64,000 nt of DNA, taken from positions 1 to 64,000 of the IMG/VR virus record IMGVR_UViG_3300029319_000016. The stretch is one strand, 5' to 3'. Both the position numbers and the translations under genes were made by a program. Under the pieces are notes generated by a model. The model was not told where the DNA came from. It did no database searches and saw nothing but the letters and a program-made list of their open reading frames with translations. This DNA comes from a virus. This document shows, one piece after another, positions 12,299 to 28,857 of this stretch. Within the stretch, counting starts at the first letter, position 1, and each line of letters opens with the position of its first letter.

Positions 12299-12796
12299 TT
12301 ACTCTACCTCTTCCACTGTTCCTGTAACTGTTAATGGTTGTGGCAAAGGTTGAAAGTTCTCTTGTGGTATTTTATTAGAATTAAAAGGTTTTCCATCAAC
12401 AGGAATGGCTATTGTAATATGTGGAAACTTTACTTTTTTAGAAATCGGAGCAGGTGGTTCGACTTTAGCAGCCATTGCTTTATCATCAAAACCAATATGT
12501 GTTACTTGCAACAACACTTGTCCACCAACAGGATAATCAGCACTAAAGTCATGCTTTCCTTTTGGATGAACAATAGGCGAGAAAGGCACAATTGTCATAT
12601 GGTGTGGCAAAGGAGCACCAGCTTTTGTTTCGTGAACAAAACCTTCAGGTACGCCAAACTCAATAGCAGCTTGTTTTAAAGCTTCTACACTTTGAGGGTC
12701 AAGAACAACTCCGGAATAAGAAACTTTTCCTTCACTTAAAACAGCATCAAGTTCTTCTTTAATTATTCTTCTTAATTGTTGATTCGTTATTTGCAT
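12299..12796 (-). CDS. 2H phosphoesterase (cyclic phosphodiesterase-like) carrying the class I leader
   Basis: Start reassigned to ATG 12796 (SD GGAG), giving MQITNQQLRRIIKEELDAVLSE. Two H-x-T motifs, HHMTIV and PHITIAI, followed by KPFNSN. Confidence 0.75.
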   Translation of the reverse strand: MQITNQQLRRIIKEELDAVLSEGKVSYSGVVLDPQSVEALKQAAIEFGVPEGFVHETKAGAPLPHHMTIVPFSPIVHPKGKHDFSADYPVGGQVLLQVTHIGFDDKAMAAKVEPPAPISKKVKFPHITIAIPVDGKPFNSNKIPQENFQPLPQPLTVTGTVEEVE

Positions 12797-12813
12797 TATT
12801 TTCTCCATTAAAT

Positions 12814-12828
12814 GCGGGCGCAACCCGC
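12814..12828 (-). other. GC-rich RNA hairpin GCGGG-UUGCG-CCCGC just after the TGA
   Basis: Perfect 5-bp all-GC stem in an AT-rich context, starting 5 nt after the TGA. Only a weak U-tract (AUUU) follows. Confidence 0.55.
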
Positions 12829-12833
12829 GTGAG

Positions 12834-12887
12834 TCAGCTGCCTGAACAGCAACGACGAACTGGTTGTAGCATCCATTTTTTATTCAT
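12834..12887 (-). CDS. Small Cys-containing peptide MNKKWMLQPVRRCCSGS, ending in TGA
   Basis: ATG overlaps the end of the upstream gene and has SD GGAG. The ORF fills the intergenic gap and is below the ORF-track size cut-off. Confidence 0.5.
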   Translation of the reverse strand: MNKKWMLQPVRRCCSGS

Positions 12888-13194
12888 CTTTATCTCCAAT
12901 TTTTGAAATACGAAAGCCAAAATCATCAACCAACATAGAGATTAGATAAGATGTTCCAGCAGAAATCCAACCGCAAATAAAAAAATTAGCGATTGTATAA
13001 TCAAATGTAAATAGTTCCGTCCACTTGTTAATGCAAAATAAAAAACAACCAACCCAAAAGCCTATACACAAAGGACAATGAAAAAGTGTGTTCCATTTCT
13101 TTGTGTAATCTTTTTCAGGTCGAAAATCTTCAAATATTTTACCGTAAACAAGAATAAAAGTCAAACCATAAGCGGCAAGTATAAAATTTATCAT
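12880..13194 (-). CDS. Small membrane protein with CxxC (DUF1360-like)
   Basis: Three hydrophobic segments and the motif LFHCPLCIGFWVG. Confidence 0.6.
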   Translation of the reverse strand: MINFILAAYGLTFILVYGKIFEDFRPEKDYTKKWNTLFHCPLCIGFWVGCFLFCINKWTELFTFDYTIANFFICGWISAGTSYLISMLVDDFGFRISKIGDKDE

Positions 13195-13201
13195 CTAACA
13201 C

Positions 13202-14347
13202 CTATTTTAAAAATCCATATCTTTTGTCAACATAATTTATAATATTACTTTCAAATTTACTTATAAGATTTGAAGCTGTAGTCCAGCTTTCTTCAAGATT
13301 TACTTCATCAATGCCTAGGTTTGCTAATTTCATAAAAAGATCATCATTGTGATCATTCATCATATTTATGTAATCATCTAATCTAGATGAAAAATGTTTT
13401 TTAATTAGATCTTTTCTGTTTACTTTTTTTCCACTTTTTCTCAAAATAACTAGTTCTTTGTCTGCTAATAGTGTTGCTTTTCTAGTAAACCCAACTGCAT
13501 ATGCTTCTATCTCAACTGGCTGTAAGTAGTACAATACATACTTTTGTGCCTCAGTTGAAGCAGAATACGCTTTAAGTAATTTTTTAAAATCCTCTACACT
13601 TTCTTTTAAAATTTTATCATATTGTTCTTTATAGGATTCTTTCTCTTTCTTTGTAACTAAATTATAGAAAAAATCTGTAATTTTTTTTCCAATAGATTTT
13701 GTAGTGTTGTTTAGCATTTTCAATCTTTTTGACGGGTCTTTTTCTTTTATTATTTTATCATATAAGTCAATCGTTTTGTCAAAACCTGATCCTTTTATAT
13801 TTTGTAGTGAATGTTCTATTTCGTGTCTAACGTTTTCTTGTAATGTAATTTTAATCTTATTCAACACACCAAGATTGTTGTTAACTGATCTTTTGTTGTC
13901 ACTACCTTTAATTTGTTTTTCACTAGTTTTGTCCCAACCTATTGTATGTTCAAAGTCAATCTTCAAAGTTTGCTTACCAGGCATCCAGCCAGCACCAGGA
14001 GATTTTAAGACAAATTTATTTTTATTACCACCACTTAGTTCTTTAAAAGTTAATTTATAGTTTTTTATAAGTTTCAAATATTTTGAGTTTTTCAACTTTT
14101 TTAGACGACGTTTCATAAAATTGTTAAAGTTTTTTTCTGAATAGAAAGATGGTCCAAAATTTTCAGCAGTTAGCTCACCACCTGGATCGCCATCTGGGAC
14201 TTGATCTTTTCGGCTTATAATTTCTTTATGCTGAGCTTTTATCATAAGGGCCAAAAAGTCTATTACACTTTTAACAATGACACCAGCTTCTCTATCACCA
14301 GATCGAGCTTCATTTAATTTTAATTTTTTTATTATTTTTATTTTCAT
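13202..14347 (-). CDS. Putative zincin-like metallopeptidase
   Basis: HExxH (RHEIEH) with a downstream YYLQPVEIEAYA. Short basic N-terminus ending in L-N-E. Lys-rich. Confidence 0.5.
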   Translation of the reverse strand: MKIKIIKKLKLNEARSGDREAGVIVKSVIDFLALMIKAQHKEIISRKDQVPDGDPGGELTAENFGPSFYSEKNFNNFMKRRLKKLKNSKYLKLIKNYKLTFKELSGGNKNKFVLKSPGAGWMPGKQTLKIDFEHTIGWDKTSEKQIKGSDNKRSVNNNLGVLNKIKITLQENVRHEIEHSLQNIKGSGFDKTIDLYDKIIKEKDPSKRLKMLNNTTKSIGKKITDFFYNLVTKKEKESYKEQYDKILKESVEDFKKLLKAYSASTEAQKYVLYYLQPVEIEAYAVGFTRKATLLADKELVILRKSGKKVNRKDLIKKHFSSRLDDYINMMNDHNDDLFMKLANLGIDEVNLEESWTTASNLISKFESNIINYVDKRYGFLK

Positions 14348-15030
14348 TAATATGTATACCTTCCATAGAGGTATGGAGCAAACATATTGTGTTGCAAAAT
14401 TGAACCCTTTTCTTCAGAGTGTGGAACTTCACCTAGTTCTGTTGAGTTTTCATTATCAGGTTCTAGTTGAGCATCTTGCATTATATCATCATGGCCTTTT
14501 TTCATCTTTGATGATGGAATTTCTGATTTTATCCATTCTGACAATTGATAAACTGTGGATTTTATTGGATCTCTTTCTTTTGATTCGTGTATCTTGCCTT
14601 CAAGAGAACCATAAACATTACCACCTTGGATTGAATCGTATTCAATTACACCATTTTTTCTCATCCATTCCATTAAACGTGACTCCGCACCATAAACAAC
14701 TTCAGACATTAAGTCTTTTGGAAACGCAACAATCTTCTTTTTCTCAACCATTAGGACTATGTCAATGTCTGCATGATCAAAAATAAGTAAATCACCATTA
14801 AGAGCTTTACGTATGTTCATTTCAAATTTAGTTTTTCTTTCATTTGGATTGTTAATTTTAACACCGATTGGTCCTGGTGTAAAACGAACTTCGGTATCTC
14901 CTTTTATTTTAACATCCAAATCTCTTTCTTCTGGTTCTGTTTTCACATTGACACTAGTAGGAGTCCGAATGTCAATCCCAAGATCTTCTTCTAGCAGGTC
15001 TGAAATTATGTTTTGTGGTTTTTTATACAT
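14347..15030 (-). CDS. Hypothetical protein
   Basis: 227-aa ORF coupled to both neighbours; no recognisable motif. Confidence 0.65.
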   Translation of the reverse strand: MYKKPQNIISDLLEEDLGIDIRTPTSVNVKTEPEERDLDVKIKGDTEVRFTPGPIGVKINNPNERKTKFEMNIRKALNGDLLIFDHADIDIVLMVEKKKIVAFPKDLMSEVVYGAESRLMEWMRKNGVIEYDSIQGGNVYGSLEGKIHESKERDPIKSTVYQLSEWIKSEIPSSKMKKGHDDIMQDAQLEPDNENSTELGEVPHSEEKGSILQHNMFAPYLYGRYTY

Positions 15031-15825
15031 TTATTTAATCTCCGATAATAGTTGTTGAATGTGAAAGACATCTTTAACTACTTCCTCGGTTAAAGGTTTC
15101 TTTTTAAAGTTTTCAAGTTTTTCTTTAACTAGTTTTATCTTATCAGACCACTGCCCTTCGCTTAAATTTTCACATTGTTCTCTTAATCTTGCAATTTCTT
15201 CGTTCATAAACGTTTTAAGCCCAAGTCCATTATCAGAAAAAGACGTAATGTAGTTAGTCAAAAGATCTCTCTGTTCTTTTAAAAGAGACTCCTTATATGT
15301 ATCATTAAATTTATTAACAAAGGTACTATAAGTAAGACTATCTATTGTCTTCAATTTTTGCTCTTTAATCGCTTGAGGATGCGAAATAACAAGTGTTTTG
15401 ACCCTTTCCTCTATCAATAGACGGGTTTTTGCTTTAAGACCATTAGAATTGAAATACTGTCCAACTGTTGCTATTGATTTATAATTGGGAATAAAATTAC
15501 CAAATGCCTCTGGGATGTTGTGATTAAACTCTTTGATTAGACTGGTTTGTTCATTAAAAATTTCTTTTCTGTCTAAAGCTTCCCAGTCTTCTTTTACTTC
15601 TTTCATGTAACGAAGTCCAAGAGATTCTTCAAGTTTTTGAGGTTCCATTAACTGTTTATACAATTGGAGATCGTTGTAAAGAGGCTTTCCTTTTGAGAAA
15701 TATCTCTTAAGTGTCTCAACAATTTGTTGTTTCTTTTGAAGCTCTCCTCTTACAACAGCCTTGGTCATTTCTTTGATTAGGCATTCGTAAAGAAAAGCGG
15801 TATTTCTTTTCTTATTATGTTTCAT
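15031..15825 (-). CDS. Hypothetical protein of the head-assembly region
   Basis: 264 aa, helical, begins MKHNKKRNTAFLYE, SD AAGGAG. Confidence 0.7.
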   Translation of the reverse strand: MKHNKKRNTAFLYECLIKEMTKAVVRGELQKKQQIVETLKRYFSKGKPLYNDLQLYKQLMEPQKLEESLGLRYMKEVKEDWEALDRKEIFNEQTSLIKEFNHNIPEAFGNFIPNYKSIATVGQYFNSNGLKAKTRLLIEERVKTLVISHPQAIKEQKLKTIDSLTYSTFVNKFNDTYKESLLKEQRDLLTNYITSFSDNGLGLKTFMNEEIARLREQCENLSEGQWSDKIKLVKEKLENFKKKPLTEEVVKDVFHIQQLLSEIK

Positions 15826-15839
15826 TTGTTTCTCCTTTA

Positions 15840-16226
15840 TTACTTTCTATAAAAATCTTTTCTTCGTCTACTAAGACCATCATATCTGTATCCTACACCT
15901 ATCGCTTGAGCCACAGCTCTACGCATCATTGAGAGTTTACCTTGCATTTCTCTTCCATATTCCATTTCTTCACTACTAGTACCTCTGTGAAATACACCTG
16001 CTGATTTTATCCTGTTATTTAAGATTTTTAACAAATCCATTGCTTTAAAATGCTCTGGTGAGCCGTCAATTATATTAGGGTTGTCACTTAAAAATTGCAT
16101 ACAGTGTCTATACAAGTCTTCATTAGAAAATTCATGAGGAAGTCCTAATCCTACTTGCATTTCTTGAAGTGTTTTTTCTAACTCTTCTTTTATTACTTGT
16201 CTTAGTTGTTTATTGGTTATTTTCAT
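15840..16226 (-). CDS. Orphan protein with class I leader (putative internal head protein)
   Basis: Begins MKITNKQLRQVIKEELEKTLQE; SD AAGGA. Confidence 0.7.
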   Translation of the reverse strand: MKITNKQLRQVIKEELEKTLQEMQVGLGLPHEFSNEDLYRHCMQFLSDNPNIIDGSPEHFKAMDLLKILNNRIKSAGVFHRGTSSEEMEYGREMQGKLSMMRRAVAQAIGVGYRYDGLSRRRKDFYRK

Positions 16227-16240
16227 TATTTTTTGTCCTT

Positions 16241-16765
16241 TTATAGTATACCTGCTTTTTTTAAAATTGCTTGAATTCCCTGTTCAGGAATGCTTGGAAA
16301 TTCAGTTTTTAGTTTTTCTATTACTTCTTCTACTGGTGTTCCTCTAAAATGTAAATCCCAAGCATAAGCAGCAGCAGACTTTATTCTTATTACTCTCGGT
16401 CTGCTGAGGCCGGGCATTCCAAACTTCCTGTGTATTTTATCAACATAATCAAAAACCAATCGAGCTTCTTTAACTTTTTCAACATCGCTACCTCGATTAG
16501 TATAATCATCAACATAATAGTCCATGGCTCTTTGAGTCATGTTTTTTGCATTAACTTCATTAACATTCACAGTACTGCTTGTGTTCTTTATCATTTTTCC
16601 TCGAAACAAACCAACACCATAGCTACTCATCATCAGATGAACCCAACACCTACGCAAAGCTATGGCGGTTTCAGGAGTAATCCCTTCATCTTCTCCAATC
16701 TCTAAGAGTAAGTTTTCTACTTCTTCTTTAATAATTTGTTTTAATTGTTTATTAGTTATCTTCAT
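16241..16765 (-). CDS. Orphan protein with class I leader (putative internal head protein)
   Basis: Start reassigned to ATG 16765 (SD AGGAG), giving MKITNKQLKQIIKEEVENLLLE. Confidence 0.7.
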   Translation of the reverse strand: MKITNKQLKQIIKEEVENLLLEIGEDEGITPETAIALRRCWVHLMMSSYGVGLFRGKMIKNTSSTVNVNEVNAKNMTQRAMDYYVDDYTNRGSDVEKVKEARLVFDYVDKIHRKFGMPGLSRPRVIRIKSAAAYAWDLHFRGTPVEEVIEKLKTEFPSIPEQGIQAILKKAGIL

Positions 16766-16775
16766 TTTTTTTCTC

Positions 16776-17129
16776 CTAAGATCCGCCATAAGTTTTCATG
16801 GCATAAACAATCATTAATCGTTCTTTAATCTCACCATTTAACAACTGCATGTCAAGTTCACTTAATCCATATGAATTAATCTTTGCTTGTTCAGCTATTG
16901 TTGCAAAGATCAATCTTCTAAGTGAACCATCATTAGCACCTATCCTCATCGCGTAGTGACTTCTAAATGCATCATCATCTTTCATTAACTCTATGACATG
17001 AGGATGTGCCATCAAAGCCTCAACACAATCTCTAGTAAAAAGTTTTTCTGCCTCTGACAACTCTTCTTTGAGAACTTTTTGTAATTCTTCTTTAATTATT
17101 TGTTTTATTTGTTTCTTAGTTATCTTCAT
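16776..17129 (-). CDS. Orphan protein with class I leader (putative internal head protein)
   Basis: Begins MKITKKQIKQIIKEELQKVLKEE; ATGA overlap with the portal stop codon. Confidence 0.7.
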   Translation of the reverse strand: MKITKKQIKQIIKEELQKVLKEELSEAEKLFTRDCVEALMAHPHVIELMKDDDAFRSHYAMRIGANDGSLRRLIFATIAEQAKINSYGLSELDMQLLNGEIKERLMIVYAMKTYGGS

Positions 17130-19078
17130 TCTGTTTTTTCCTTTACGTTTAATGACTCGATAAGTATTTCCACTTCGCGAGACACAGTTTCTAATTTTTG
17201 TTCTTCTTCTAAATAACCACCAGCAGCTTGAGATAGTGAGTATTCATTTCCAACGTAGCCTTTATAAATGTTACGACCTGTGGATCTTGCTGTTTCAATT
17301 CCTGTGGAGCCGAGCATAGATTTTTTCATGCCGCCTTTATCATAAGATGATCTATGTCTCTTGTATGGGCCTCGTTTAGATGGAACATCAACATATCCTG
17401 GTGAGTCATCCCGCTTCGCAGAGGGTTCGGCGAGCAGATCAGTGTCACCCCCTTCGTCGCCGCCGACATCACCTCCGCCGGTGTCTCCACCGCCAAGATC
17501 TCCTCCAAGGTCTCCACCAAGCTCACCACCTAGATCTCCACCTGCTTCATCGCCACCACCTCCACCGAGGTCGCCAAGTCCACCAGCAAGGCCGCCGCCT
17601 CCACCAGCATCTTCACCAGCTTCTCCACCAGTTGCAGCGGCTTCAAGCTTGGCTCCAAATTTTTTGTCAAAGAACATTTCTCGTTGATTGCGAAGAAATT
17701 CATCTTCTGATAAGCCAAACATGTTTTCAGCGATCCAGCGTTTTGAAAAGTAACCTTCAGTTGCATTACCAGCAACAGAAAACTTTTTATCCCAATGTTC
17801 AAGTTCTTGTAGTTCAGCAATTTTAGATGGATTATTTAGCTGTAATTTAAATGTTAATAAATCATCGTTTCTATAACCAAGAGTATAAAGATGTATAATA
17901 CCAATTTTTTCTAGTTCAGAAATAGCAACACGTTGAAGTCTTTGTATAGTCCTAGCAAAACGAATATCTTTTTGTGCTAATGTAGTTTTATCTTCTGTTG
18001 CTCCTTCTCCCATAGTTAGGTATGATTGTGGTATTTTTAGAGCAGCAAACAATTTGTCTCTGAGATACTTGACATCATCGATACCACCATTATAAGAAGC
18101 TCCTGGGAGACTGCTTATGTCAGTAGCTGATTGTCCTCCACGAATTGGTACATAATAATCTTCTTCAATTGATAAAGGATTATAGCGTAAGTCAACCCGA
18201 CCTGTTTTTGGATCAACAATAGAGTGTCTTTTTAACTGTGTCATAACTTTTTGCATGTACTGTTCAACTTCCTGTGGAGGAATACCACCAACGTCAATTT
18301 TAAATAAACGACGCTCAGGAGCACGAACAATTCTGTATGCCATCATGGCATCTTCTAATAGTATAAGTTGACGGTGAATGCGTCTACAAGCTTCGAGAAC
18401 TGATGTTCCGTAAGGAGCATGCTTATCATTACCAAGGATTCTGAAGTGGGCAACTTGCCAATTCTCCAGAGTTAGTCCTGCTGTGTTCCACTGGTACTGG
18501 ACGTAATTAGGATTACTTTGGTCCTCTCCTTCTAGACGTTCGATCTCTCTAGTAGGTAGCCCTATTGCAGATCGAATTCCCATATCCTCATCAATGTCAA
18601 GATATAGAAAGAAATCACCGTACTTACACATTGTTCTTGCCCAACCAAAAAGATTGTGTTCGATGTTTAAAACATTGTGATACAAATTATGGAGGATATG
18701 TTTAATTTCTTCGTTCGCACACTTAATGTTAAGCATTGGACGAAGAGCTGTATGGGTTGTCATTTCATCTGCATAAATGTCTAAAGATGAAGCTATCTCT
18801 GGCATGTATTCCATTTCATCAAAATCAACATAACGTTCAGCTCTATTTCTATTTGAAATCATGTTGAGCGTTACAGAGTTTATTGGGTTATATTCCCATT
18901 TTTTAAATTGAGCACCTGTAGCTGATTTGAATTTTGTAGCATAATTATCTAATTGCCGTCTACGTAACATACGACCTGTTTGTGTCCTGCGTTGCGTAAT
19001 TGGACCTGAGAACAGTTTTGTTAAAGCCTTAAATAAATCCGATTGCGGGTTATAAGGCGACTTTTTATATTTTGCCAT
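17126..19078 (-). CDS. gp20: Portal vertex protein (T4 gp20-like)
   Basis: Motifs PEIASSLDIYADE, YGTSVLE, LLEDAMMAYRIVRAPERRLFKIDVG, EDYYVP, DDVKYLRDKLFAALKIP and DIRFARTIQRLQ. Gly/Asp-rich C-terminal tail. Confidence 0.95.
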   Translation of the reverse strand: MAKYKKSPYNPQSDLFKALTKLFSGPITQRRTQTGRMLRRRQLDNYATKFKSATGAQFKKWEYNPINSVTLNMISNRNRAERYVDFDEMEYMPEIASSLDIYADEMTTHTALRPMLNIKCANEEIKHILHNLYHNVLNIEHNLFGWARTMCKYGDFFLYLDIDEDMGIRSAIGLPTREIERLEGEDQSNPNYVQYQWNTAGLTLENWQVAHFRILGNDKHAPYGTSVLEACRRIHRQLILLEDAMMAYRIVRAPERRLFKIDVGGIPPQEVEQYMQKVMTQLKRHSIVDPKTGRVDLRYNPLSIEEDYYVPIRGGQSATDISSLPGASYNGGIDDVKYLRDKLFAALKIPQSYLTMGEGATEDKTTLAQKDIRFARTIQRLQRVAISELEKIGIIHLYTLGYRNDDLLTFKLQLNNPSKIAELQELEHWDKKFSVAGNATEGYFSKRWIAENMFGLSEDEFLRNQREMFFDKKFGAKLEAAATGGEAGEDAGGGGGLAGGLGDLGGGGGDEAGGDLGGELGGDLGGDLGGGDTGGGDVGGDEGGDTDLLAEPSAKRDDSPGYVDVPSKRGPYKRHRSSYDKGGMKKSMLGSTGIETARSTGRNIYKGYVGNEYSLSQAAGGYLEEEQKLETVSREVEILIESLNVKEKTE

Positions 19079-19096
19079 GGTTCATCCTTTTCGTAA

Positions 19097-19136
19097 TAAA
19101 TAGTTCTATTATAGCATAAAGTAAGTCATTTGTCAA
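19097..19136 (-). promoter_or_regulatory. Consensus sigma70 promoter plus CTATTTA element upstream of the portal gene
   Basis: TTGACA (19136-19131), 17-nt spacer, TATAAT (19113-19108) with an extended TG. CTATTTA at 19103-19097. Confidence 0.8.
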
Positions 19137-19137
19137 G

Positions 19138-20724
19138 CTAGCCTTTAAAAATCCAAGCAAAGTCTTTATATGTTTTTTCAAAATCTTCAAAAGCTTCTTG
19201 AGTTTTGTTTCCTACATACCCACGCATACCTTTTATTGATGTATTCATAGTCGTTTGAGAAGACTTAATAGAAGTAACCATAGCCTCTTGATACATCCGA
19301 TCTTTCTCAGATACTTCAAGAGCAGTGTCTCGAACCCAACAAGCAATCGCTAGAGACATTATTAAGTCATCATGATACGATCTCATAGCTTGAGGCTTTC
19401 CATTGTTCCAGATAAAAGTTTTTACTTCATGAAACAAACGAGAGGACTTTGGTTTGACCAATTTATTTCTTATATATTCTTCTAGTTTAGCAACTATAAG
19501 AGGTCTTGTCTTTGTTGATGTTGTAAATCCGATAACTGCTCTGTCATTGTATTCGCCTTCTAAAGAGTCAACATATTCATGTGTAGATTTGATTGAGTAA
19601 TAAAGATTTGGATACCCAAGATCTCTTACTTTCTCACAAGCTGCTATGCCTATACCTACATTTTCAATAACCATGAGACAGTTACCATATTCTTTACCAG
19701 CATCAAATAAAATTTTAGCAAAATGATCCATAGTTGGTTTACCTTGATATTCAGCTACTACACTCATTGTATCTGTTCTTAGTATGTGAAAGACAGATGA
19801 GTCAGCTCCATCGCCACGAGCCACATCAGCAACCATAAGATAGGGAACACCTTCTTGATATTTTTCCCAGATCCATAAATTTCTGTCCCAGCTTGTCTTG
19901 TATTCTGGTTCTTGTTGATTTTCAAACAACCAGTGTATATCATCAGGATGTATCACAGTTTCACCAGAAGTGTTAAAGTTACACTCAAGCTCTTGTGCTA
20001 TTTGTCTTCTCGACATATTCTTAGTTTCTTTAACAAACCAATCTTCATCACGTTCAGGGTGAACATCCCAAGGTAAAGACACAGGGTGAAACTCATTATC
20101 TCCATTCTCTGCATCAACATAAGTTCTATGAAACCAGTTTCCAACTCCCATGGGTGTTGATAAAGCTATACAACGACCCCCTGTTGATAGAGTGGGGTAA
20201 AGACCTGCCCACAGATCATCAAGACCGTCAACGTGTGCTGCCTCGTCTATAATCAATAAAGATAGGGCTTCCGAACGACCAGCATCTGCTGATGTTCCAA
20301 CAGCTTTGATTGTAGAACCATTGGATAATTCAAACGAAGTTCTGTTGTCAATAACGATACTGGCAACCTGCATCCATTTTGGCAAATTTTTCATTACCAT
20401 CTTTACTTTCTTTACTAAATTAGCTGCTGTTCCAAATTTGGTTGCCATGACCAAGATGTTCTTTTCTTTATGAAACAACATAAACCAAACAGCATAAGCT
20501 GCCGAAATAGTAGAAATACCAAGCTGCCTTGCTTTAAGAATAACTGTGAAGCGATAATCATTAAAGTCTTTGACTAATTGGTCTTGGTAAGGATAGGTGT
20601 TAAAAGGGATTAAACCCTTGAGTGGGTGAGAGATCCGACAATAATTATTTATAAAGTATAATGGATCTTTTCCGCACTTAAGGATTTCTTTTATTATTTC
20701 TTGCTTTGATAGCTTGAGGGTCAT
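19138..20724 (-). CDS. terL: Terminase large subunit (T4 gp17-like)
   Basis: Walker A LKARQLGIST, Walker B LLIIDEAAH, LSTPMG, and nuclease motifs ADVARGDGAD and HDDLIMSLAI. Confidence 0.95.
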   Translation of the reverse strand: MTLKLSKQEIIKEILKCGKDPLYFINNYCRISHPLKGLIPFNTYPYQDQLVKDFNDYRFTVILKARQLGISTISAAYAVWFMLFHKEKNILVMATKFGTAANLVKKVKMVMKNLPKWMQVASIVIDNRTSFELSNGSTIKAVGTSADAGRSEALSLLIIDEAAHVDGLDDLWAGLYPTLSTGGRCIALSTPMGVGNWFHRTYVDAENGDNEFHPVSLPWDVHPERDEDWFVKETKNMSRRQIAQELECNFNTSGETVIHPDDIHWLFENQQEPEYKTSWDRNLWIWEKYQEGVPYLMVADVARGDGADSSVFHILRTDTMSVVAEYQGKPTMDHFAKILFDAGKEYGNCLMVIENVGIGIAACEKVRDLGYPNLYYSIKSTHEYVDSLEGEYNDRAVIGFTTSTKTRPLIVAKLEEYIRNKLVKPKSSRLFHEVKTFIWNNGKPQAMRSYHDDLIMSLAIACWVRDTALEVSEKDRMYQEAMVTSIKSSQTTMNTSIKGMRGYVGNKTQEAFEDFEKTYKDFAWIFKG

Positions 20725-21657: not shown

Positions 21658-22288
21658 AATCCCACCTTTCTGAATTGCCATATTTCTCCTCATCAGTTTC
21701 GTGTGTTGTTCTCTCAGGTGAATCCATGTCTCTATAAACTTTCATCCAGTATGGAGTTTCTAAATTCTTTGGACTTAAAGAATTGTCTAAGAACCTCATC
21801 TTGTTGTTTGGACCACAGCACAACACACCATCATGATCGTCAAAAAAATAAGTTTTTGTTTTATGTTCGTGCCAACATTCAGATTGCCCATGATCATTTA
21901 CATCTCTTGGTCTCTGAGGGTCACAAGTCCAAAGATAAGTCCCTTCCCATTTGTGCCCTGCTCTGTTGAACATTTCTACATCTATTCCTCGAAGTCCTTG
22001 GATCTGTGTCATTTGCCAGTAGTCTGAAATACAATCCCACCAAGCCACATCAGGCATTTTAATTTCTTTATTTGGTGTTTCTTTTCTGTTAAAGATGGCA
22101 CACTGATCTACTTTATCATAGAAAGCTCCCATTGACGGAAGATAAACTAAATAAAGCGGTGCTCTACCTCTAATAAATCTTATTGCGTGTAAAACGCCAA
22201 AAATAGTTTCGTCTTTTCCATAATTTGGATCACCTGATAAAAAAGACTTTTTAACATAACATTCGGTATAAGGTGTTGATACGATCAC
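21644..22288 (-). CDS. Hypothetical protein
   Basis: 214 aa, GTG start with SD GGAG overlapping the upstream stop. Rich in Trp, Cys and His (WWDC, WHEHK, GPNN). Confidence 0.6.
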   Translation of the reverse strand: MIVSTPYTECYVKKSFLSGDPNYGKDETIFGVLHAIRFIRGRAPLYLVYLPSMGAFYDKVDQCAIFNRKETPNKEIKMPDVAWWDCISDYWQMTQIQGLRGIDVEMFNRAGHKWEGTYLWTCDPQRPRDVNDHGQSECWHEHKTKTYFFDDHDGVLCCGPNNKMRFLDNSLSPKNLETPYWMKVYRDMDSPERTTHETDEEKYGNSERWDYEKE

Positions 22289-23343
22289 GGATCACTCCTA
22301 GCTTTTCTTATTGCCCTACTGATATCTGTAGGATTTTTTATATCTTTTATTCCTAATTCTCTTTGTGCTCTAGAGACATTAATATTTGACGATAGGCTTG
22401 CTACTTCATCACTGGTAGTTATTATCTCTTTAACGTGCGAATACATATTAAAGAAAGCTGTTATTAACTGCCTAGTATCATCGATAGCTGTGTGTAGCTG
22501 AATGTAATCAGGTCCCGGACCATAAACATCCATCATTCTTTGTAGTTTTCCGTTAAAAGAAATAATTGTTTTTATTTCACCATTTACTTCTTTCTCTTTT
22601 TCGTCAAAAAATTTAACCAACCTTCTGTCGCCTTTACTTGCTTCATATTCTGCTATTCCTTTAAGAACTTGTCTTTGAAAATTAACTGTGTCGAAGATGT
22701 CGATTTGTTGAAAAGAAGTTGTGTCAATTCCAAGAGCTTCACCTTCTTTGATTATTTTATTTCTATCAAAAGTTTTTATATTGTGACCAACAGATACGAC
22801 ATTAGGACCTAGTGCTTCAACCCAAGCAAGAAACTCTTCCATGGCTTCATACTCATCTCTATCATCTTCTCTTGTTTGATAGTTTGTGTAACCAATCATA
22901 TCAGCAACAGTATAAGGTCTACCTTCTTCTTTTTCTTTTTGAACCTTTAATAAAAAATCAACCTCTCTTGTGACCTGACCTGTTCTTTCATACTCATCAA
23001 AAATCTCCTCGGCCCTATCAATCATGTCTTGCTGTGCAATATACTTTTCTAATGTTTCTTGATTTAAGGCAACATTGACATCAAACTCTGCTATTGGTTG
23101 TTCGGGAATAGGCCCATCGATATCATCAATTTTAAAAGCAATTGCTCCATACTGAGTTATTTGTCCATCAAAACCTATACTTTCCAAATCCCAAAAGAAC
23201 CATGTCTTTCCATTTAATTCTCTTCTCATGTATTCGAGTACATCGCCGGGGGTCATGTCTCTTAATAAAGATAAATCTTCCATAAGAACTTTTTTTAATT
23301 CTTCTTTTATCATTTTCATGACATCTTTTTTTGTTATTGCCAT
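22285..23343 (-). CDS. DEDDh 3'-5' exonuclease carrying the class I leader
   Basis: Start reassigned to ATG 23343, giving MAITKKDVMKMIKEELKKVLME. ExoI FFWDLESIG, ExoII GHNIKTFD, ExoIII HTAIDD. CTATTTA at 23387-23393. Confidence 0.8.
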   Translation of the reverse strand: MAITKKDVMKMIKEELKKVLMEDLSLLRDMTPGDVLEYMRRELNGKTWFFWDLESIGFDGQITQYGAIAFKIDDIDGPIPEQPIAEFDVNVALNQETLEKYIAQQDMIDRAEEIFDEYERTGQVTREVDFLLKVQKEKEEGRPYTVADMIGYTNYQTREDDRDEYEAMEEFLAWVEALGPNVVSVGHNIKTFDRNKIIKEGEALGIDTTSFQQIDIFDTVNFQRQVLKGIAEYEASKGDRRLVKFFDEKEKEVNGEIKTIISFNGKLQRMMDVYGPGPDYIQLHTAIDDTRQLITAFFNMYSHVKEIITTSDEVASLSSNINVSRAQRELGIKDIKNPTDISRAIRKARSDP

Positions 23344-23732
23344 CAATTCACCGCCTGTGCAATTGCTATTGTAATTCCTACTCCAGTAAATAGTCCAAAA
23401 GAAAACCAAAATTTCTTTTTTGGTGGTGTTTTTAACTGTTCTAAACCTTTTATTCTTTCTTCCAAAGCTTGAACTTCTGCTTCGAGTGTCCCTCTATCGA
23501 GTTTGTGTTGGGACTTAAGTTTGTTTATTTCTTGCTCTTTGTCTGCAAGAAGTATACCAATCTGATAATCCATTTCTATTTGACATCTGTCTGTTGCATC
23601 TGCTATTTGATCGGCTAATAGTTGTGATGCTGTGTCGTTAAACAAACGACCAGAAAACGGAGCTTCCATTCCTTTTTCAAGATAGGTATATTCAGGTGCG
23701 TCTGCAAATGCTAAAGATAGTAAAAAAATCAT
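23343..23732 (-). CDS. Exported or membrane coiled-coil protein, possibly spanin-like
   Basis: Short hydrophobic N-terminus ending AFA, central coiled coil, and a C-terminal transmembrane segment. Confidence 0.45.
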   Translation of the reverse strand: MIFLLSLAFADAPEYTYLEKGMEAPFSGRLFNDTASQLLADQIADATDRCQIEMDYQIGILLADKEQEINKLKSQHKLDRGTLEAEVQALEERIKGLEQLKTPPKKKFWFSFGLFTGVGITIAIAQAVN

Positions 23733-24355
23733 ATTGTTTTAATCCTTCCTTTTAAACAGGGTAATGTTGTAATATTTTTTTTGCGATACCCTTTAGTAAA
23801 CGGAGATCTAAGAAATGCAGGTTTCATTTTATCAGATTTTTCAAATTGATCTATTTCATATGGCCAGAGCTCTAAAGAATCAAAAAATGTATTTTGTTCT
23901 GCGTTGTCTATATTTGAAGGTGTTAATAAGTTACTTTCGGTATCAAGTTGGAATTGTTCATAATCATTAGAAGAAGCATAATATCTCCACTGACTTCTGG
24001 CTTCTTCGCTAACTTGGTTCCTATCACATGCTAGATAGCTATCGTGTTCTACTACTAGTTCTGTTGCAATGTCATATATTAAAGCCCCAAAACCAGTATC
24101 ACGATATTCTCCATCAATTTCAGTCCAACCAATAACAAAACAAGGATTATAGTCCCTAGTTGCATGTAGCTCTCCTACTAAAGAATTATCCCATTTTCTT
24201 ATAGCATAAATTTTTATTGTATCTCGCTCACTTTTAATTTCAAAAATAAGATCATTTTTTTCAACTACTTTTAATCCTTGATTTATCTTATCATTTGCTT
24301 CTTCACAATAAACTTCAAGAATGAGATTGTGTAACTTTTTTGATGTTAATTTCAT
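23729..24355 (-). CDS. GNAT-family acetyltransferase-like protein with a leader variant
   Basis: Acetyl-CoA motif A-like EIDGEYRDTGFGALIYD, followed by VSEEARSQW. N-terminus MKLTSKKLHNLILEV. Confidence 0.6.
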   Translation of the reverse strand: MKLTSKKLHNLILEVYCEEANDKINQGLKVVEKNDLIFEIKSERDTIKIYAIRKWDNSLVGELHATRDYNPCFVIGWTEIDGEYRDTGFGALIYDIATELVVEHDSYLACDRNQVSEEARSQWRYYASSNDYEQFQLDTESNLLTPSNIDNAEQNTFFDSLELWPYEIDQFEKSDKMKPAFLRSPFTKGYRKKNITTLPCLKGRIKTI

Positions 24356-24687
24356 TTCTTCGTTATTCCTAGATCTTTAAAGACATCATCAGGATTAGAT
24401 TGTTGTTTTTCTAATTTTTCTAATCTTTTTTCTTTTTCAGATTCAAGAGCAATCTTTACAGCTTTAGCTTTTTGTTCTGCTCGTTTATCTCTAACTTTTT
24501 TTGCTTTCTGTAGACGCTCAAGTTCTTCGTTCTCTTTCTTGTATTGATCTTTGGCTAAGTTAGCCATTTCCAAATAGTTTTGGTTTGAGCGTCTTCCAAG
24601 CACATAAGATAAAATAAATAAACCCATGAGAATTAACCAGTTCTTATGAGCTACAATCCAATTCTTTGCTTTGTATAACCAGATCAT
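24352..24687 (-). CDS. Membrane-anchored coiled-coil protein, possibly i-spanin-like
   Basis: N-terminal transmembrane segment WLILMGLFILSYVLG followed by a charged coiled coil. Start is either 24687 or 24708. Confidence 0.45.
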   Translation of the reverse strand: MIWLYKAKNWIVAHKNWLILMGLFILSYVLGRRSNQNYLEMANLAKDQYKKENEELERLQKAKKVRDKRAEQKAKAVKIALESEKEKRLEKLEKQQSNPDDVFKDLGITKK

Positions 24688-24689
24688 GA

Positions 24690-24965
24690 CTAACCACCGT
24701 GTCGCCACATTTTAGCAAAGTCAACAGCGGTTTGTCCACCGATGTACATCATAGCAATCATTCCCCAAGTTTCAGGGTCTAGTTGTGCATTCCACAATAA
24801 AGCTGTTGCTGATACAAACACAAGCAGCTTACGAGAGATCGCTTTCTCTTGTAAAGCATCAAGAATACCTTTTTGTTTGTTATCGAGATATAATTGTTGT
24901 TTTAATTTTTCTTTTTTTTCTTGTTCCATTTTTTCTCCTGCCTGTAAAAACTCTTCTCTGGTCAT
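24690..24965 (-). CDS. Small two-TM membrane protein, possibly a holin
   Basis: SRKLLVFVSATALLW and WGMIAMMYIGGQTAVD form two hydrophobic helices. Confidence 0.5.
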   Translation of the reverse strand: MTREEFLQAGEKMEQEKKEKLKQQLYLDNKQKGILDALQEKAISRKLLVFVSATALLWNAQLDPETWGMIAMMYIGGQTAVDFAKMWRHGG

Positions 24966-25285
24966 TAACTTTCCTTTAAGATTTGCATAACTCTTTCTGT
25001 AATATAATCTGCATGCTCAGGACTTTCTTCGGCAACATAGTGATAGATATCATTTTCAAACATATGTCCAAAGCCTTGCTTAATCATTGGTGCAAGGTGC
25101 ATAAATTTGCTGACGGTCTGCATAATAATTCCACCAACATAGTCATAGTCAGGATGATCAGGTCCCATTCCTACTGTCATTCCACTGAAGGAGTCCATAG
25201 GAGGTTCCATGCCCATCATTTCATTCATGACTTTGTTAAGCTCTTCTTTGATAATTTGTTTAATTTGTTTATTTGTTAATTTCAT
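24965..25285 (-). CDS. Orphan Met-rich protein with class I leader
   Basis: Begins MKLTNKQIKQIIKEELNKVMNE; SD GGAG; two CTATTTA copies upstream. Confidence 0.7.
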   Translation of the reverse strand: MKLTNKQIKQIIKEELNKVMNEMMGMEPPMDSFSGMTVGMGPDHPDYDYVGGIIMQTVSKFMHLAPMIKQGFGHMFENDIYHYVAEESPEHADYITERVMQILKES

Positions 25286-25304
25286 TTTTAATCTCCATAA
25301 AATG

Positions 25305-25338
25305 AAAGCCTAAATAGCTTTTACACTAAATAGGCTTT
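25305..25338 (-). promoter_or_regulatory. Hairpin (possible terminator) containing two CTATTTAG copies
   Basis: Minus strand AAAGCCTA-TTTAGTGTAAAAGCTATT-TAGGCTTT. Motif copies at 25327-25333 and 25311-25317. Confidence 0.55.
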
Positions 25339-25348
25339 TGAAAGAGAT

Positions 25349-28300
25349 TTAGCAGTTTACTTTTGCATAACCACCAACTTTCTGTATGTCGATGGTTCTA
25401 TCTACACAGTCTTTTAAAACATCGAGGTGAGAAATCAACAGAACGGTTTTAAACTTATCTTTTATCATGTCAATCAAACGAACAAAACCCTCCATGTGTT
25501 CCTGATCCAAAGCTGTGGCAGGTTCATCCATGATAAATAGAGTGGACTTAGGCAAGTTGGTTATCTCAATTAGAGCAAGACGTATAGCCATAGCTGCAAT
25601 AGTTTTCTCAGCACCTGATCCCATAGATATAGGTCGAGAGTCATACTTCGGATGCTTAATATTGATATCTAAATTACGACCATCTTCTTCAAACATAACT
25701 TGAAAATCAACAATGTTTGCAAGGCATTTTTGAATTTCCTCGTTTATAAGAGATAATTTTTGTTTGATTATTTCGTAAGCAATTCCATTTGGATGCATAC
25801 AACGCATGAATAACTCATAGGCTATAAAAGATTCTTCGAGTTCATCTTGCTCTCTCTTTTCAACATGAAGTCTCTTAATGGTACTCTTAACAGCACCAAG
25901 TTCAACAAGATAATCTTGGATCTTTTTATCACATTTTTCTTTTCTTTGTTTAGCTTCTGTCATTTTTGTTTTGACAGCGTTCTTGGATTTAATAAGAGAC
26001 GACAGATTCTCAATTGCTTGACGATTTGCATTGTATTCATCTCTTTGTTGTTCAAGAGAACCTTTTTGATTAGTCATGAGAGAGATCTTTGATATGATTG
26101 ATTCATTTGTTATTTCTAAATTATGATTTTTGGCTAAAAAACTTTTGCGCTTGTCAACATTCTTCTCCAGAACTTCTAGTTCTTTTTCAGCGACTTCTTT
26201 ATCTAATCCATAAATCTTTAATTTATATCCATCAATTATCTTTTCAACCTCTTCTATTTCTTCTTCAAGAGTCGGAAGATAATCTTTAGCTTTTGTAGCA
26301 TCTTTAACAAACTTATTATTAGAACAATATTCACAATCAGGATCATACTCATGGTCATGAAGCATGTTAATCTTTTTAATAGATTGTTTTTCTATTGTTT
26401 TAAGCTTCTTGAGCTCCTGTTGTGAGTCTTTTAAAGACTCTTCAAACACCTTACACTGTTCTATGATTTGCGTGAGTCTATGCTTGTTTATGGAGCTTAC
26501 AATGTCATCAGCTTGTTGGATGGCAAGTTCGTTTTGCTTTATCTGTTGTTTGTTTTCAGATACTTTTACACCAGCTTTGTGTATTTGTACGTCAAGCCGA
26601 TCAATCTCATCTTCTAATTCATCGATGTCAATAATATTTTGAGGAATAGAATTAATCTCTTCTTCTATCTTTAAAAACTCTTCAAGTAATTCTTCATAGC
26701 GATTGTTGTGTTTTTTGCACAAATCTGTTTGATGGTCTATATCATCGTTAATTTCTTCTATCTCTTCTTGTTTGGCTACTAATAGTTCTGCTATCTTTTT
26801 ACTTTTAAACCTTTTGATCAAAGTGGAGATTTCTGAGGAGTCTTTCTTTGCAAAGTTTAATTTTTGATCAAAGATGTCTAAGTCGAGAAACTTAGCTAGT
26901 TTATTCTTTCTTTTTGTTGAACCTTCTTTAATGAACGCAAGAGAATCTAACTGCGAAGCCATTGATGTGATCATAAAGTCTTCTATGTTTCCGAAGATCT
27001 TTCTTATGTTGGCCTCAGTATCTTTTACAGAATCGCCGTTACAAGAACTATTGGTAGTGAGATTGTGGAAATCAAGATCACCAGAGGCCACAGGGATGGA
27101 CTTTCCTCGTTGGGTTTTATAAGATTTATTGAGATTCCGAGTAATTTGATAGTCTTGACCGTCTGCTTCGACCACCATCTTGATAGAGGCTTTAGTTTTG
27201 TTTTGATTGACGAGGTGAACGTTTTTCTTCTCGGCTTTGCTGGTTCCGCCATAAATGCCATAAAGAGCAGAATCAATAACAGAAGACTTCCCACTGTAGT
27301 TTTTGCCAAAAATGCCAACGATTCCAGAAAGATTTGCAAAATCCAAAGAATTACTTTGTCCATAGTTAAATAAATTTGAGAACTGCATCTCTTTAATATT
27401 CCATTTGACGTTTCTTCGGACTTCTTCAACCTTCTCTACCTCTTTATTATACTTAGTATTGAGATCAAGCACTTGACTCATCAAGTCCTCATCTAGATCA
27501 TAATCTTTTAAATAATCACGAATATATCTTTCTTGAACAGAAACATCACGCATGTTTTCCATTTTGTGTTCTTGTCCGTCTGAGGATGTGAAATTAGACG
27601 TTCCTTTATTTAAGAAGGACAAAGACACCGGATTGTATTTAGAACGTGCTAAATCGGTAATCTTGCGTATGGAAGAGCTATCCATGTTAACAGTCGAGAT
27701 TAATCGAAGACGACAACCATGAGGAACATGATAATGTTGAGGTATCTTTCCTTTGTCATCTAAATTAATTGTAATAAAAGGTCGGGGATTGGTAAAGATA
27801 ACATGTTGAACATCAAAATCATCTTTAGATCTAATTGTCCAAAGCTTATAGCCTTTTCTTCCGTCCTCCGAAAAATTCTGCTGAATTGTAGAGCCAGCAT
27901 ATTGAGCACGACCTTCTTCATCTAAAATCTGTGGTTTGTGAATGTCACCAAGCATAACAAAATCGTGACCTTTAAAAATCTCTATGTCATCATCGCCATG
28001 TTCCATAGCCCAACCTGATCCTGTTTTAGAACCCATAATTGCACCATGATAAAGAGCAATGTTAATGTCACCAGTTTTTGGCCTCATCCAAGCTCCTCTA
28101 TCAAAGATTGATAAGACATTTAATGATAATCCTACTTGAGGAGATACACGACCAGAGTTTTTTAATAGATGCAAATCAGGATGGTTCAATGCGTTAACAA
28201 TAGGAGACACAGCATCTTCCCTATCTGAGTTCTTTAGATTACCGTCATGGTTTCCAAGAATGATATAAGTTGGCGCAATGTCTGCTAGGTTTTTTAAGAA

Positions 28301-28489
28301 CTCAGAAGCCAAAGCAAAATACTCTGGTGACAACTGAGTTTTTGTGTGAGCCAAATCACCACAATGAACAATATAGTCAGGTTTTTGGCTTAGTAATTTT
28401 TTATAAATCTGATTAAATACAAATCTGTATTCATCATGAAATTTAAGATTACGAATATGTGTATCCGCAAAGTGTGCGATCTTAATCAT
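25349..28489 (-). CDS. sbcCD: Fused Mre11/Rad50 (SbcD-SbcC, gp47-gp46) nuclease-ATPase
   Basis: Phosphoesterase motifs ADTH, GDLAH, GNHD, YHG and GDIH. Walker A GKNYSGKSS, coiled coil with zinc hook CEYC, signature GSGAE, Walker B FIMDEPATALD, H-loop ISH. Confidence 0.92.
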   Translation of the reverse strand: MIKIAHFADTHIRNLKFHDEYRFVFNQIYKKLLSQKPDYIVHCGDLAHTKTQLSPEYFALASEFLKNLADIAPTYIILGNHDGNLKNSDREDAVSPIVNALNHPDLHLLKNSGRVSPQVGLSLNVLSIFDRGAWMRPKTGDINIALYHGAIMGSKTGSGWAMEHGDDDIEIFKGHDFVMLGDIHKPQILDEEGRAQYAGSTIQQNFSEDGRKGYKLWTIRSKDDFDVQHVIFTNPRPFITINLDDKGKIPQHYHVPHGCRLRLISTVNMDSSSIRKITDLARSKYNPVSLSFLNKGTSNFTSSDGQEHKMENMRDVSVQERYIRDYLKDYDLDEDLMSQVLDLNTKYNKEVEKVEEVRRNVKWNIKEMQFSNLFNYGQSNSLDFANLSGIVGIFGKNYSGKSSVIDSALYGIYGGTSKAEKKNVHLVNQNKTKASIKMVVEADGQDYQITRNLNKSYKTQRGKSIPVASGDLDFHNLTTNSSCNGDSVKDTEANIRKIFGNIEDFMITSMASQLDSLAFIKEGSTKRKNKLAKFLDLDIFDQKLNFAKKDSSEISTLIKRFKSKKIAELLVAKQEEIEEINDDIDHQTDLCKKHNNRYEELLEEFLKIEEEINSIPQNIIDIDELEDEIDRLDVQIHKAGVKVSENKQQIKQNELAIQQADDIVSSINKHRLTQIIEQCKVFEESLKDSQQELKKLKTIEKQSIKKINMLHDHEYDPDCEYCSNNKFVKDATKAKDYLPTLEEEIEEVEKIIDGYKLKIYGLDKEVAEKELEVLEKNVDKRKSFLAKNHNLEITNESIISKISLMTNQKGSLEQQRDEYNANRQAIENLSSLIKSKNAVKTKMTEAKQRKEKCDKKIQDYLVELGAVKSTIKRLHVEKREQDELEESFIAYELFMRCMHPNGIAYEIIKQKLSLINEEIQKCLANIVDFQVMFEEDGRNLDINIKHPKYDSRPISMGSGAEKTIAAMAIRLALIEITNLPKSTLFIMDEPATALDQEHMEGFVRLIDMIKDKFKTVLLISHLDVLKDCVDRTIDIQKVGGYAKVNC

Positions 28490-28518
28490 AAATCCTCCGT
28501 AATTAATTAAGTATTTTT

Positions 28519-28547
28519 ATTATAACACATTACGAAAGATTTGTCAA
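28519..28547 (-). promoter_or_regulatory. Consensus sigma70 promoter for sbcCD
   Basis: TTGACA (28547-28542), 17-nt spacer, TATAAT (28524-28519) with an extended TG. Confidence 0.85.
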
Positions 28548-28548
28548 G

Positions 28549-28857
28549 TTATTTTTTTGGTACGTGTCTCATATCTCCGGAAGATTGCGCTCTTCTCAAA
28601 TAAGTTCTAACAAGATCAGCTTCTTGGTATCCATACTCTGTTTCAAACTTTTCAATGTTCTTGGGATTAAAAACATGTCTTCTCTGAAGTCTTCCAGTTT
28701 TTCCAAGATCAAGACCTGTTGAAGGAAATTGTAAAAAACCCATGTATTTTCTAAATGCTTGAAACATTCTTTCCTGATGATGAAGACCTTCTCTCATCTT
28801 GATTAAGCCCAACTCTTCTTTAATTATTCTTTTTAATTCTGTGTTTGTTATTTTCAT
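28549..28857 (-). CDS. Orphan protein with class I leader
   Basis: Begins MKITNTELKRIIKEELG; SD AAGGAG; tandem CTATTTA at 28878-28884 and 28886-28892. Confidence 0.7.
   Translation of the reverse strand: MKITNTELKRIIKEELGLIKMREGLHHQERMFQAFRKYMGFLQFPSTGLDLGKTGRLQRRHVFNPKNIEKFETEYGYQEADLVRTYLRRAQSSGDMRHVPKK

Follow-up and report, generated by a model that had tools for sequence, protein, structure and literature searches.

Known capsid-targeting systems and the locus described here

The internal proteins of phage T4 (IPI, IPII, IPIII and Alt) are made with propeptides of 10–19 residues, which direct them into the prohead core and which the protease gp21 cleaves off, and ten residues of this capsid-targeting sequence (CTS) suffice to load foreign proteins (PMC9026906, PMC3012670, PMC9958956). 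Among T4-related phages, CTS-like sequences are found on a variety of proteins (PMC9026906, PMC3012670). Here we describe what may be an analogue of this system in an uncultured marine phage of the T4-like type. The DNA analysed, hereafter the window, is the first 64 kb (positions 1 to 64,000 of IMG/VR record IMGVR_UViG_3300029319_000016) of one 88,050 bp viral contig with a CheckV completeness estimate of 48 %; the minus strand carries all of the long open reading frames (ORFs). Seven genes of the window with unrelated bodies open with nearly the same leader (class I), and two others open with a different one (class II). On balance we favour, with a confidence that is modest but on the positive side, the view that leaders of both classes are portable N-terminal propeptides that would work like the T4 CTS while being unrelated to it in sequence.

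Like the CTS, the leaders are short N-terminal sequences, putatively propeptides, on unrelated and poorly conserved proteins, and they end at a Glu within a protease motif; the gp21-type protease of the phage is accompanied, as in T4, by a portal of T4 type and by a capsid protein of gp23 type with an aligned maturation site, and the set of cargo proteins (the bodies that follow the leaders) varies between relatives. The 22 residue class I leader is roughly double the length of the T4 CTS, and two or more interchangeable classes of tag coexist within a single genome. The system also departs from T4 in its extent, since a genome may carry as many as 27 tagged genes and the tagged protein clusters number 13,614, and in that some of the cargo consists of enzymes of nucleic-acid metabolism. 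A second parallel is provided by the head and ejection proteins of phiKZ, 201phi2-1 and SPN3US, many of which are processed C-terminal to Glu by a homologous protease; paralogs in these giant phages have identical N-terminal peptides with the motif, and one SPN3US propeptide is 20 residues long (PMC5694885). The giant-phage sites have the form A/S/G-x-E and mostly follow propeptides of more than 100 residues (PMC5694885), unlike the [LIVM]-x-E ends and the one short tag on hundreds of unrelated bodies that are found in the present system.

The class I leader

The seven class I genes (L1 to L7) start at positions 12796, 16226, 16765, 17129, 23343, 25285 and 28857 of the minus strand, as a previous sequence-only reading of the window had placed them, and open with the 22 residue consensus M-K-I-T-N-K-Q-L-K-Q-I-I-K-E-E-L…[LM]-x-E. 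Three of them also have longer in-frame upstream starts (TTG at 12823, ATG at 16789 and TTG at 23409), in agreement with the earlier statement that over-long ORF calls conceal the leader. When the six-frame translation of the whole contig was searched with a profile of the seven leaders, the same seven alone were recovered at 36–48 bits, the next best score being 7.7 bits, and a repeat of the profile search again returned the seven class I genes. Within the window the coding pattern for I-K-E-E-[LV] has seven matches, every one inside a leader, compared with 0.33 ± 0.59 matches in shuffled sequences, of which 0 in 100 reached seven. Synonymous positions vary between the DNA copies, and the leader is thus conserved as protein. 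I-K-E is present in all seven leaders, as had been reported; the accompanying claim of a terminal L-x-E needs slight amendment, in that [LM]-x-E closes the leader at residue 22 in six and the seventh has M-R-E at residue 23. The ‘weaker variants’ suggested at 24355, 11669 and 14347 all fell below scoring in the leader profile search.

The description of the leader as an amphipathic helix did not survive, since the hydrophobic moment at 100 degrees gave a mean z of 0.47 relative to shuffles of each leader, which is not significant. Charge is distributed in a bipolar manner, with +4.2 over residues 1–13 and −2.7 over residues 14–22. A helix is predicted by AlphaFold2 at residues 5–21 of L1 and 5–19 of L5, at a confidence that is lower within the leader (blocks of 80/68/77 in L1 and 71/48 in L5), and it is followed by a short linker and then by a domain with a predicted local distance difference test (pLDDT) score above 90. 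The cargo-loading peptides of encapsulins and the encapsulation peptides of bacterial microcompartments likewise consist of a short helix and a linker that direct unrelated cargo into a shell, and encapsulin shells and phage capsids have the HK97 fold in common; those peptides are not known to be cleaved off by a maturation protease, nor their cargo to be delivered to another cell. The leaders resemble them as short helical peptides with a linker on unrelated cargo, and differ in the trimming and delivery that are proposed here.

The cargo bodies

The bodies behind the seven leaders diverge as previously described, being unrelated and mostly orphans in Pfam and PHROG searches, with two that can be identified. 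L1 (12299..12796, minus strand; leader residues 1–22 encoded at 12731–12796 and scoring 47.8–51.7 bits) has a 2H phosphoesterase body. This assignment, made originally in the sequence-only reading, is confirmed by two H-x-T motifs that are invariant across 24 homologues, by an AlphaFold2 model (pLDDT 90.7) in which the domain starts at residue 27, and by a Foldseek search of the PDB with that model, which placed the catalytic domain of CNPase on top (E-value 3.6e-4, template-modelling score 0.54), other 2H enzymes next and Acb1 at rank 49. L5 (22285..23343, minus strand; leader 36–42 bits) is a DEDDh (DnaQ-like) exonuclease, again as first proposed: residues D52/E54, D193 and H284/D289 are invariant in 29 homologues, and the model (pLDDT 90.1, with the leader at low confidence) matches ExoI, DnaQ, TREX1/2 and RNase T in Foldseek. 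A strict class I leader is present on 66 of 92 L5 homologues and class II on 0 of the 92; the remaining homologues have variant leaders or come from gene calls that are truncated or extended. Among GenBank phages L1 matched only three Bacteroides phages, in the body, and L5 had no match.

The other five bodies are orphans, and all are encoded on the minus strand. L2 (15840..16226, 128 residues, leader 42.6–45.9 bits) has a basic body of isoelectric point (pI) 9.4 and no Pfam or PHROG family, and L3 (16241..16765, 174 residues), to which the upstream ATG at 16789 belongs, is without a significant match in either collection. L4 (16776..17129, 117 residues) adjoins the downstream end of the portal gene; phrog_7338 matches its leader region alone (residues 2–35), its body has metagenome homologues at 74–100 % identity, and the search for it in related loci returned leader matches only. 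L6 (24965..25285) has an acidic body of 106 residues, and L7 (28549..28857), which lies between the primase and SbcCD-like genes, a basic one of 102 residues. Basic bodies are found in three of the seven class I proteins (L2, L3 and L7). A ‘GNAT’ that had been listed among the tagged enzymes, at 23729–24355, has neither a Pfam or PHROG match nor a leader and is thus not supported.

Spread and specificity of the class I leader

To place the leader among viruses more widely, IMG/VR was scanned with a degenerate DNA pattern that fixes only residues 1–4 (M-K-I-T) and 11–15 (I-I-K-E-E) at the correct spacing. At least 172 matches (gene starts) were found at at least 120 loci, and most of those listed are the starts of open frames, a few codons past an in-frame stop, with diverse sequences downstream. 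Positions that the pattern left free are nevertheless conserved in the 157 unique leaders among the matches listed (K5 in 128, Q7 in 105, L8 in 155 and K or R at position 9 in 140), and the matches therefore represent one motif and not chance. The same pattern matched only 19 stretches in 596 Gb of cellular genomes from 185,579 species, 18 of them on contigs of metagenome-assembled genomes and 1 in an isolate genome; since several of the former carry 2–7 copies, binned viral DNA is suggested. The motif is thus virus-specific, which answers the concern that it might be equally common outside phages. A 30-column profile of 117 leaders, searched against 1.84 billion cluster representatives, matched 13,614 clusters at E≤0.001, of which 207 reached E≤1e-10.

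In the loci examined, complete tagged proteins amount to 331 unique sequences, whose lengths run from 30 to 485 residues with the median at 106, and the mean column identity of the tagged bodies in one alignment is 5 %. A catalogue of the 130 tagged proteins of at least 125 residues yielded 15 Pfam families, each in one or two members and including pentapeptide repeats, P-loop kinase, GNAT, FliG_C and EF-hand, and any Pfam domain at all is found in only about 10 of the 130. The number of tags per genome is 7 here, 11 in a complete 190 kb genome, 6 in a 147 kb genome, and 24 and 27 in two genomes of about 290 kb (G004 and G014). In the latter two about 20 small tagged genes lie head to tail in operon-like arrays (G014, 46.5–58 kb, locus L146; G004, 51.5–61.5 kb, locus L149), each gene opening with M-K-I-T-K-R-Q-L-R-R-I-I-[KR]-E-E. 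Several members of the G004 array have a longer common stretch, I-I-R-E-E-Y-S-R-L-K-R-Q-G-L-I-R-E. A tblastn search of GenBank phages with a 26 residue leader query gave nothing at E≤10, a result for which the query length and the low-complexity filter are probably responsible and which is not evidence. The motif strings were not found in the papers searched, and the literature covered on propeptides, on the targeting of capsids and on phages that are T4-like or uncultured yielded only T4, P1, SPN3US and engineering studies; the tables of marine viral metaproteomes may list tagged proteins.

Two explanations that do without a head can be weighed at this point. A recognition handle for a modifying enzyme, either of the type used for ribosomally synthesized and post-translationally modified peptides or as a client tag of a radical-SAM enzyme, would present the same general picture, with arrays of many small proteins that are unrelated except for a conserved N-terminal peptide. 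We give this very little credence, in that the leader is without a Cys-, Ser- or Thr-rich core and radical SAM (PF04055), the only enzyme family screened, is encoded in one of five tag-rich genomes and in neither of those with 24 and 27 tagged genes. Alternatively the leaders may have no common function, the start being simply inherited by gene duplication, of which the tandem arrays are suggestive, or selected as an A-rich, weakly structured translation start, in keeping with the A/T-rich coding sequence. We think this very unlikely: residues are kept where synonymous sites vary, the hydrophobic positions (L8 in 155/157, I11 and I12) are retained across 13,614 clusters with unrelated bodies, and the same cargo is also found behind a second tag of different sequence.

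A second tag and its exchange with the first

This second leader (class II), of which M-K-L-I-M-E-N-W-R-K-F-L-x-E is a representative form, is 14–15 residues long and has the consensus M-K-L-[LI]-x-E-N-W-[RN]-x-[FY]-[LIV]-x-E; in a set of 30 leaders, at least 90 % have Glu at position 14 (E14). In the window it is carried by two adjacent minus-strand genes. The first (29876..30775) encodes a 299 residue protein with no family match, in which the leader, M-K-L-I-M-E-S-W-R-K-K-V-L-Q-E, begins at residue 5 (30719–30763) and scores 30.2 bits with the class II profile; the other (30805..31293) encodes 162 residues, with the leader at 31237–31281 and 28.3 bits. The upstream stretches of the two genes (30729–30804 and 31247–31322), comprising a CTATTTA motif, the ribosome-binding site and the first codons, are near-identical, which suggests recent duplication or conversion of a promoter-plus-leader unit.

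Class II-tagged frames number 55 in the loci examined, and some of them carry cargo that is elsewhere preceded by class I. By strict patterns, 14 of 76 homologues of the L1 cargo have class I and 34 of the 76 class II, about 14 more have class II variants, and a few are leaderless, some of which may be truncated gene calls. One cluster whose body is 87 % identical to that of L1 carries class II, with the switch point at the terminal Glu, and six more class I cargo bodies have class II-tagged homologues at up to 85 % identity. Two unrelated peptides, both ending in [LIV]-x-E, therefore interchange before the same domains, as an address-plus-cleavage signal predicts, and this is hard to explain if the peptide is part of the fold of each protein. 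A P-loop kinase-like cargo (…L-V-G-P-P-S-V-G-K…) occurs at three loci (L080, L196 and L197), one of which has it tagged with class I and the other two with class II; Pfam AAA_33 was detected in 1 of the 130 members scanned. Class II is absent from phages Mel-JY01, HTVC008M, Syn9, S-PM2, immuto and T4.

The end of the leader gives a further indication of how it might be used. In the 157 leaders the information content reaches background at residue 23, and the commonest residue at position 22 is Glu (67/157). In 90 of the 157 the Glu of a [LIVM]-x-E motif is residue 21 or 22, and in 117 the motif lies within residues 16–25, as against 12 % of 10 residue windows taken from the bodies; the seven leaders of the window all close in [LIVM]-x-E. 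The capsid protein of the phage has a motif of this type, L-R-E|S, where it aligns with the L-T-E65|A66 maturation site of T4 gp23. The proteases of the giant phages and of T4 all cut after Glu (PMC5694885), and a T4-like specificity of the protease encoded here is for this reason a reasonable presumption.

The head protease and the arrangement of tagged genes

The gp21 homologue whose presence had been noted is a prohead protease of the Peptidase_S77 family (11669..12298, minus strand; Pfam PF03420, 6.9e-33; phrog_207, 8.1e-60), and we propose it as the leader-trimming enzyme. It is closely associated with the tags. An S77 protease gene accompanies the tag in 17 of 19 large contigs, the two without it being 58 % and 28 % complete, and in 3 of 3 carrier contigs that are at least 90 % complete. 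Among small carrier fragments (3–58 % complete) the gene occurs in 16 of 30, whereas about 5 would be expected from summed completeness if tagged genes were placed randomly relative to a single-copy protease gene, so that tagged genes tend to be close to the head module. Leader matches are also present in 34 of 80 related portal loci (the best 80 of at least 600 IMG/VR stretches, at 57–82 % portal identity), in all cases on the portal strand. In the window itself four of the seven tagged genes lie between the T4-type portal gene (17126..19078, minus strand; PF07230, 3.5e-76) and the protease gene, with no intergenic gap where L2–L4 follow the portal gene and where L1 precedes the protease gene.

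The small core proteins of T4 are located between its portal and protease genes, and the fact that L2–L4 fill this slot raises the possibility that the tagged proteins are disposable parts of the prohead core or scaffold, recruited by the leader and then degraded by the protease, with nothing functional delivered. The reported degradation of gp22, gp67 and gp68 by gp21 (PMC9958956) provides a precedent, and most bodies are small (median 106 residues), acidic and without known domains, as such parts might be. We nonetheless consider this fate quite unlikely for them. Folded enzymes with intact catalytic motifs are present among the cargo (the 2H phosphoesterase and the DEDDh exonuclease), together with a P-loop kinase, a GNAT and a pentapeptide-repeat protein, and cargo that is so diverse and so readily swapped would not be expected of structural filler.

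Upstream motifs and possible timing

The motif CTATTTA, a candidate late promoter element, occurs 22 times on the coding strand compared with 7 times on the other, and 15 of the 22 fall between −65 and −15 relative to a gene; such windows together cover 4 % of the genome. It is found before three class I genes (50 nt upstream of L5, 32 and 48 nt upstream of L6, and 27 and 35 nt upstream of L7) and before both class II genes (26 nt upstream of the gene starting at 30775, and before that starting at 31293). It also precedes the portal gene (19097..19103, minus strand), the gene after the protease, a 149 residue gene at 11025 and several large, likely structural, genes. A copy lies 42 nt before the 350 residue scaffold candidate of the scaffold–capsid pair described below, and the counterpart of this gene in genome G001 has one at 41 nt. 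Apart from 19097, start positions of the motif include 31319, 30801, 28892, 28884, 25333, 25317, 23393, 11695, 11052, 4797 and 2824. A 234 residue protein encoded elsewhere on the contig has a weak match (3e-4) to phrog_234, ‘late sigma transcription factor’, and would be gp55-like.

A probably distinct and early class is formed, to judge from their sequences, by six perfect sigma-70 promoters, all on the coding strand with none on the other. These consist of TTGACAAA, a 16–17 nt spacer ending in TG, and TATAAT, and lie at 19108–19136, 28519–28547, 29839–29866 and about 31845–31873 (minus strand), with two more beyond the window from about 84186 and about 85708. Five of the six precede genes, namely the portal, SbcCD-like and primase genes and those starting at 31836 and 85656. 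Since the portal gene carries both CTATTTA and a sigma-70 promoter, a late role of CTATTTA remains inference. Sigma-70 promoters in the jumbo arrays were about as frequent as in shuffled sequence (34 against an expected 31.6), and motif counts gave no clear signal there.

Weighing the capsid-targeting interpretation

The sequence of events that we have in mind is as follows. Tagged proteins would be made alongside the head genes, and the leader helix would bind a component of the assembling prohead core, so that the protein becomes enclosed. The S77 protease would then cut behind the Glu that closes the terminal [LIVM]-x-E, at residue 22 of a class I leader or residue 14 of a class II leader, and free the mature cargo within the head, and the cargo would leave with the DNA at the next infection. 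Core binding, cleavage, packaging and delivery are each inferred. What stands of the capsid-targeting proposal as the sequence-only reading put it is a tag that is virus-specific, linked to the protease, terminated by [LIVM]-x-E and swappable, with a predicted detached helix and an upstream CTATTTA that is partly common with head genes; the amphipathic character and the GNAT have fallen away.

Several observations nevertheless weigh against this interpretation. Class I and class II profiles gave 0 matches at E≤1 in the T4 genome, and we accordingly treat the tag system as CTS-like in its working and not as a homologous member. Among cultured phages, class I was not matched in Mel-JY01, HTVC008M, Syn9 or S-PM2, and only once, weakly, in immuto. 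T4 internal proteins are described as basic, in contrast to the mostly acidic cargo of the present system: 321 cargo bodies have a median pI of 4.8, with 73 % below pI 6 and 14 % above 8.5. As to timing and position, L6 and L7 sit amid replication genes with perfect sigma-70 promoters (although the portal gene has one too), and in the jumbo genomes G004 and G014 a distance of more than 100 kb separates the tagged arrays, which have no clear promoter motif, from the gene for the protease. The invariant I-I-K-E-E core is conserved beyond the needs of a cleavage site alone, and the L5 exonuclease family keeps its leader throughout, which also fits a leader that is integral to the function of the enzyme.

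Some of these points are those that would be expected if the leader were a docking or oligomerization helix for a partner outside the prohead, such as a phage or host hub that gathers small effectors in the infected cell. The near-invariance of L8 along with the I-I-K-E-E core, the bipolar charge, the remoteness of the jumbo arrays from head genes, the failure of the exonuclease family ever to lose its leader and the presence of leader motifs inside longer proteins can all be read in this way. We regard such a role as unlikely, since it leaves unexplained why [LIV]-x-E directly precedes the cargo in both of the unrelated tag classes, and why carriers are restricted to phages with an S77 protease and linked to the gene for it; moreover no candidate for the partner was found, the 139 residue gene that follows the protease being undetected in the tag-rich jumbo genomes.

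The longer proteins just mentioned are prominent among the top-scoring clusters, which have 2–4 leader copies per protein, some of the internal copies lacking Met. Among all leader-bearing frames in the loci examined (translation table 11), only 10 of 443 have two motifs in one open frame. Leader fusions are thus rare but real, and they fit both a protease-resolvable joint and a repeated docking helix. They resemble the chains of effector modules described for the polyvalent proteins of phages and conjugative elements (PMC5512222), from which the system differs in that one small gene per cargo is normal and fusions are rare.

Other features of the phage and its head module

The closest cultured portals, those of Microcystis phage Mel-JY01 and Flavobacterium phage immuto, are 42–43 % identical to the portal encoded here, while at least 600 IMG/VR stretches contain related ones; the phage is therefore a member of an abundant, uncultured T4-like clade. 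The T4 portal model of Pfam covers residues 80–468 of the portal and does not include its C-terminal part (17126–17700), a long extension of low complexity that is rich in Gly, Asp and Glu and contains G-G-D-L-G-G repeats. The large terminase gene is located at 19138–20724 (minus strand). The gp23-type major capsid protein (2..1711, minus strand; PF07068, 1.1e-55) is cut by the contig end, and BLASTP against T4 gp23 aligns its L57-R58-E59|S60 with the maturation site L-T-E65|A66, at which gp21 removes a 65 residue piece from gp23 (PMC9958956). Immediately upstream of the capsid gene is an acidic protein of 350 residues (1730..2782, minus strand) without a PHROG match, a scaffold candidate by position only.

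The 139 residue protein encoded after the protease (11250–11669, minus strand) has no family match. Its gene, start 11669, was considered as a bearer of a portable leader and rejected: a conserved orthologue lies behind the protease in many related loci, with conserved counterparts in at least 30 related open frames among the loci examined, and because this conservation extends far past the N-terminus the gene does not carry a portable tag. It is present in genomes G001 and G006, whereas neither the tag-rich jumbo genomes nor six T4-like phages without tags yielded a match. The N-terminal helix (E-L-K-K-I-L-K-P-L-I-K-E-C-I-K-E-V) is loosely leader-like in style, and the protein could be a head-core protein. 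A basic ORF of 68 residues (11054–11260, minus strand) lies between the protease region and the capsid genes, in a position that matches a Mel-JY01 gene annotated as ribosomal protein S21. Five very large minus-strand ORFs of 1022–2669 residues (5944–10566, 37511–40579, 41699–48127, 48129–56138 and 59841–63983) presumably encode tail or fibre proteins.

Implications

If the leaders are a head-loading signal, thousands of unknown viral proteins could be placed in the virion interior and expected to act within the first seconds of infection, which is when counter-defence and takeover proteins are expected to act; a counter-defence role of the cargo itself is conjecture. A T4-type mechanism would then extend to an abundant uncultured marine clade, with a signal that is modular and tags that are interchangeable, and new short peptides would be available for loading foreign proteins into phage capsids. 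It is possible, and we put it forward tentatively, that the interchangeable tags define a head-loaded, injected pool of more than 13,000 mostly unknown cargo families in uncultured marine T4-like phages, with the tag serving as a joint at which cargo is shuffled between phages and fused into protease-resolved chains. Were this so, one short motif would pick out virion-delivered effectors, including anti-defence enzymes, from metagenomes.

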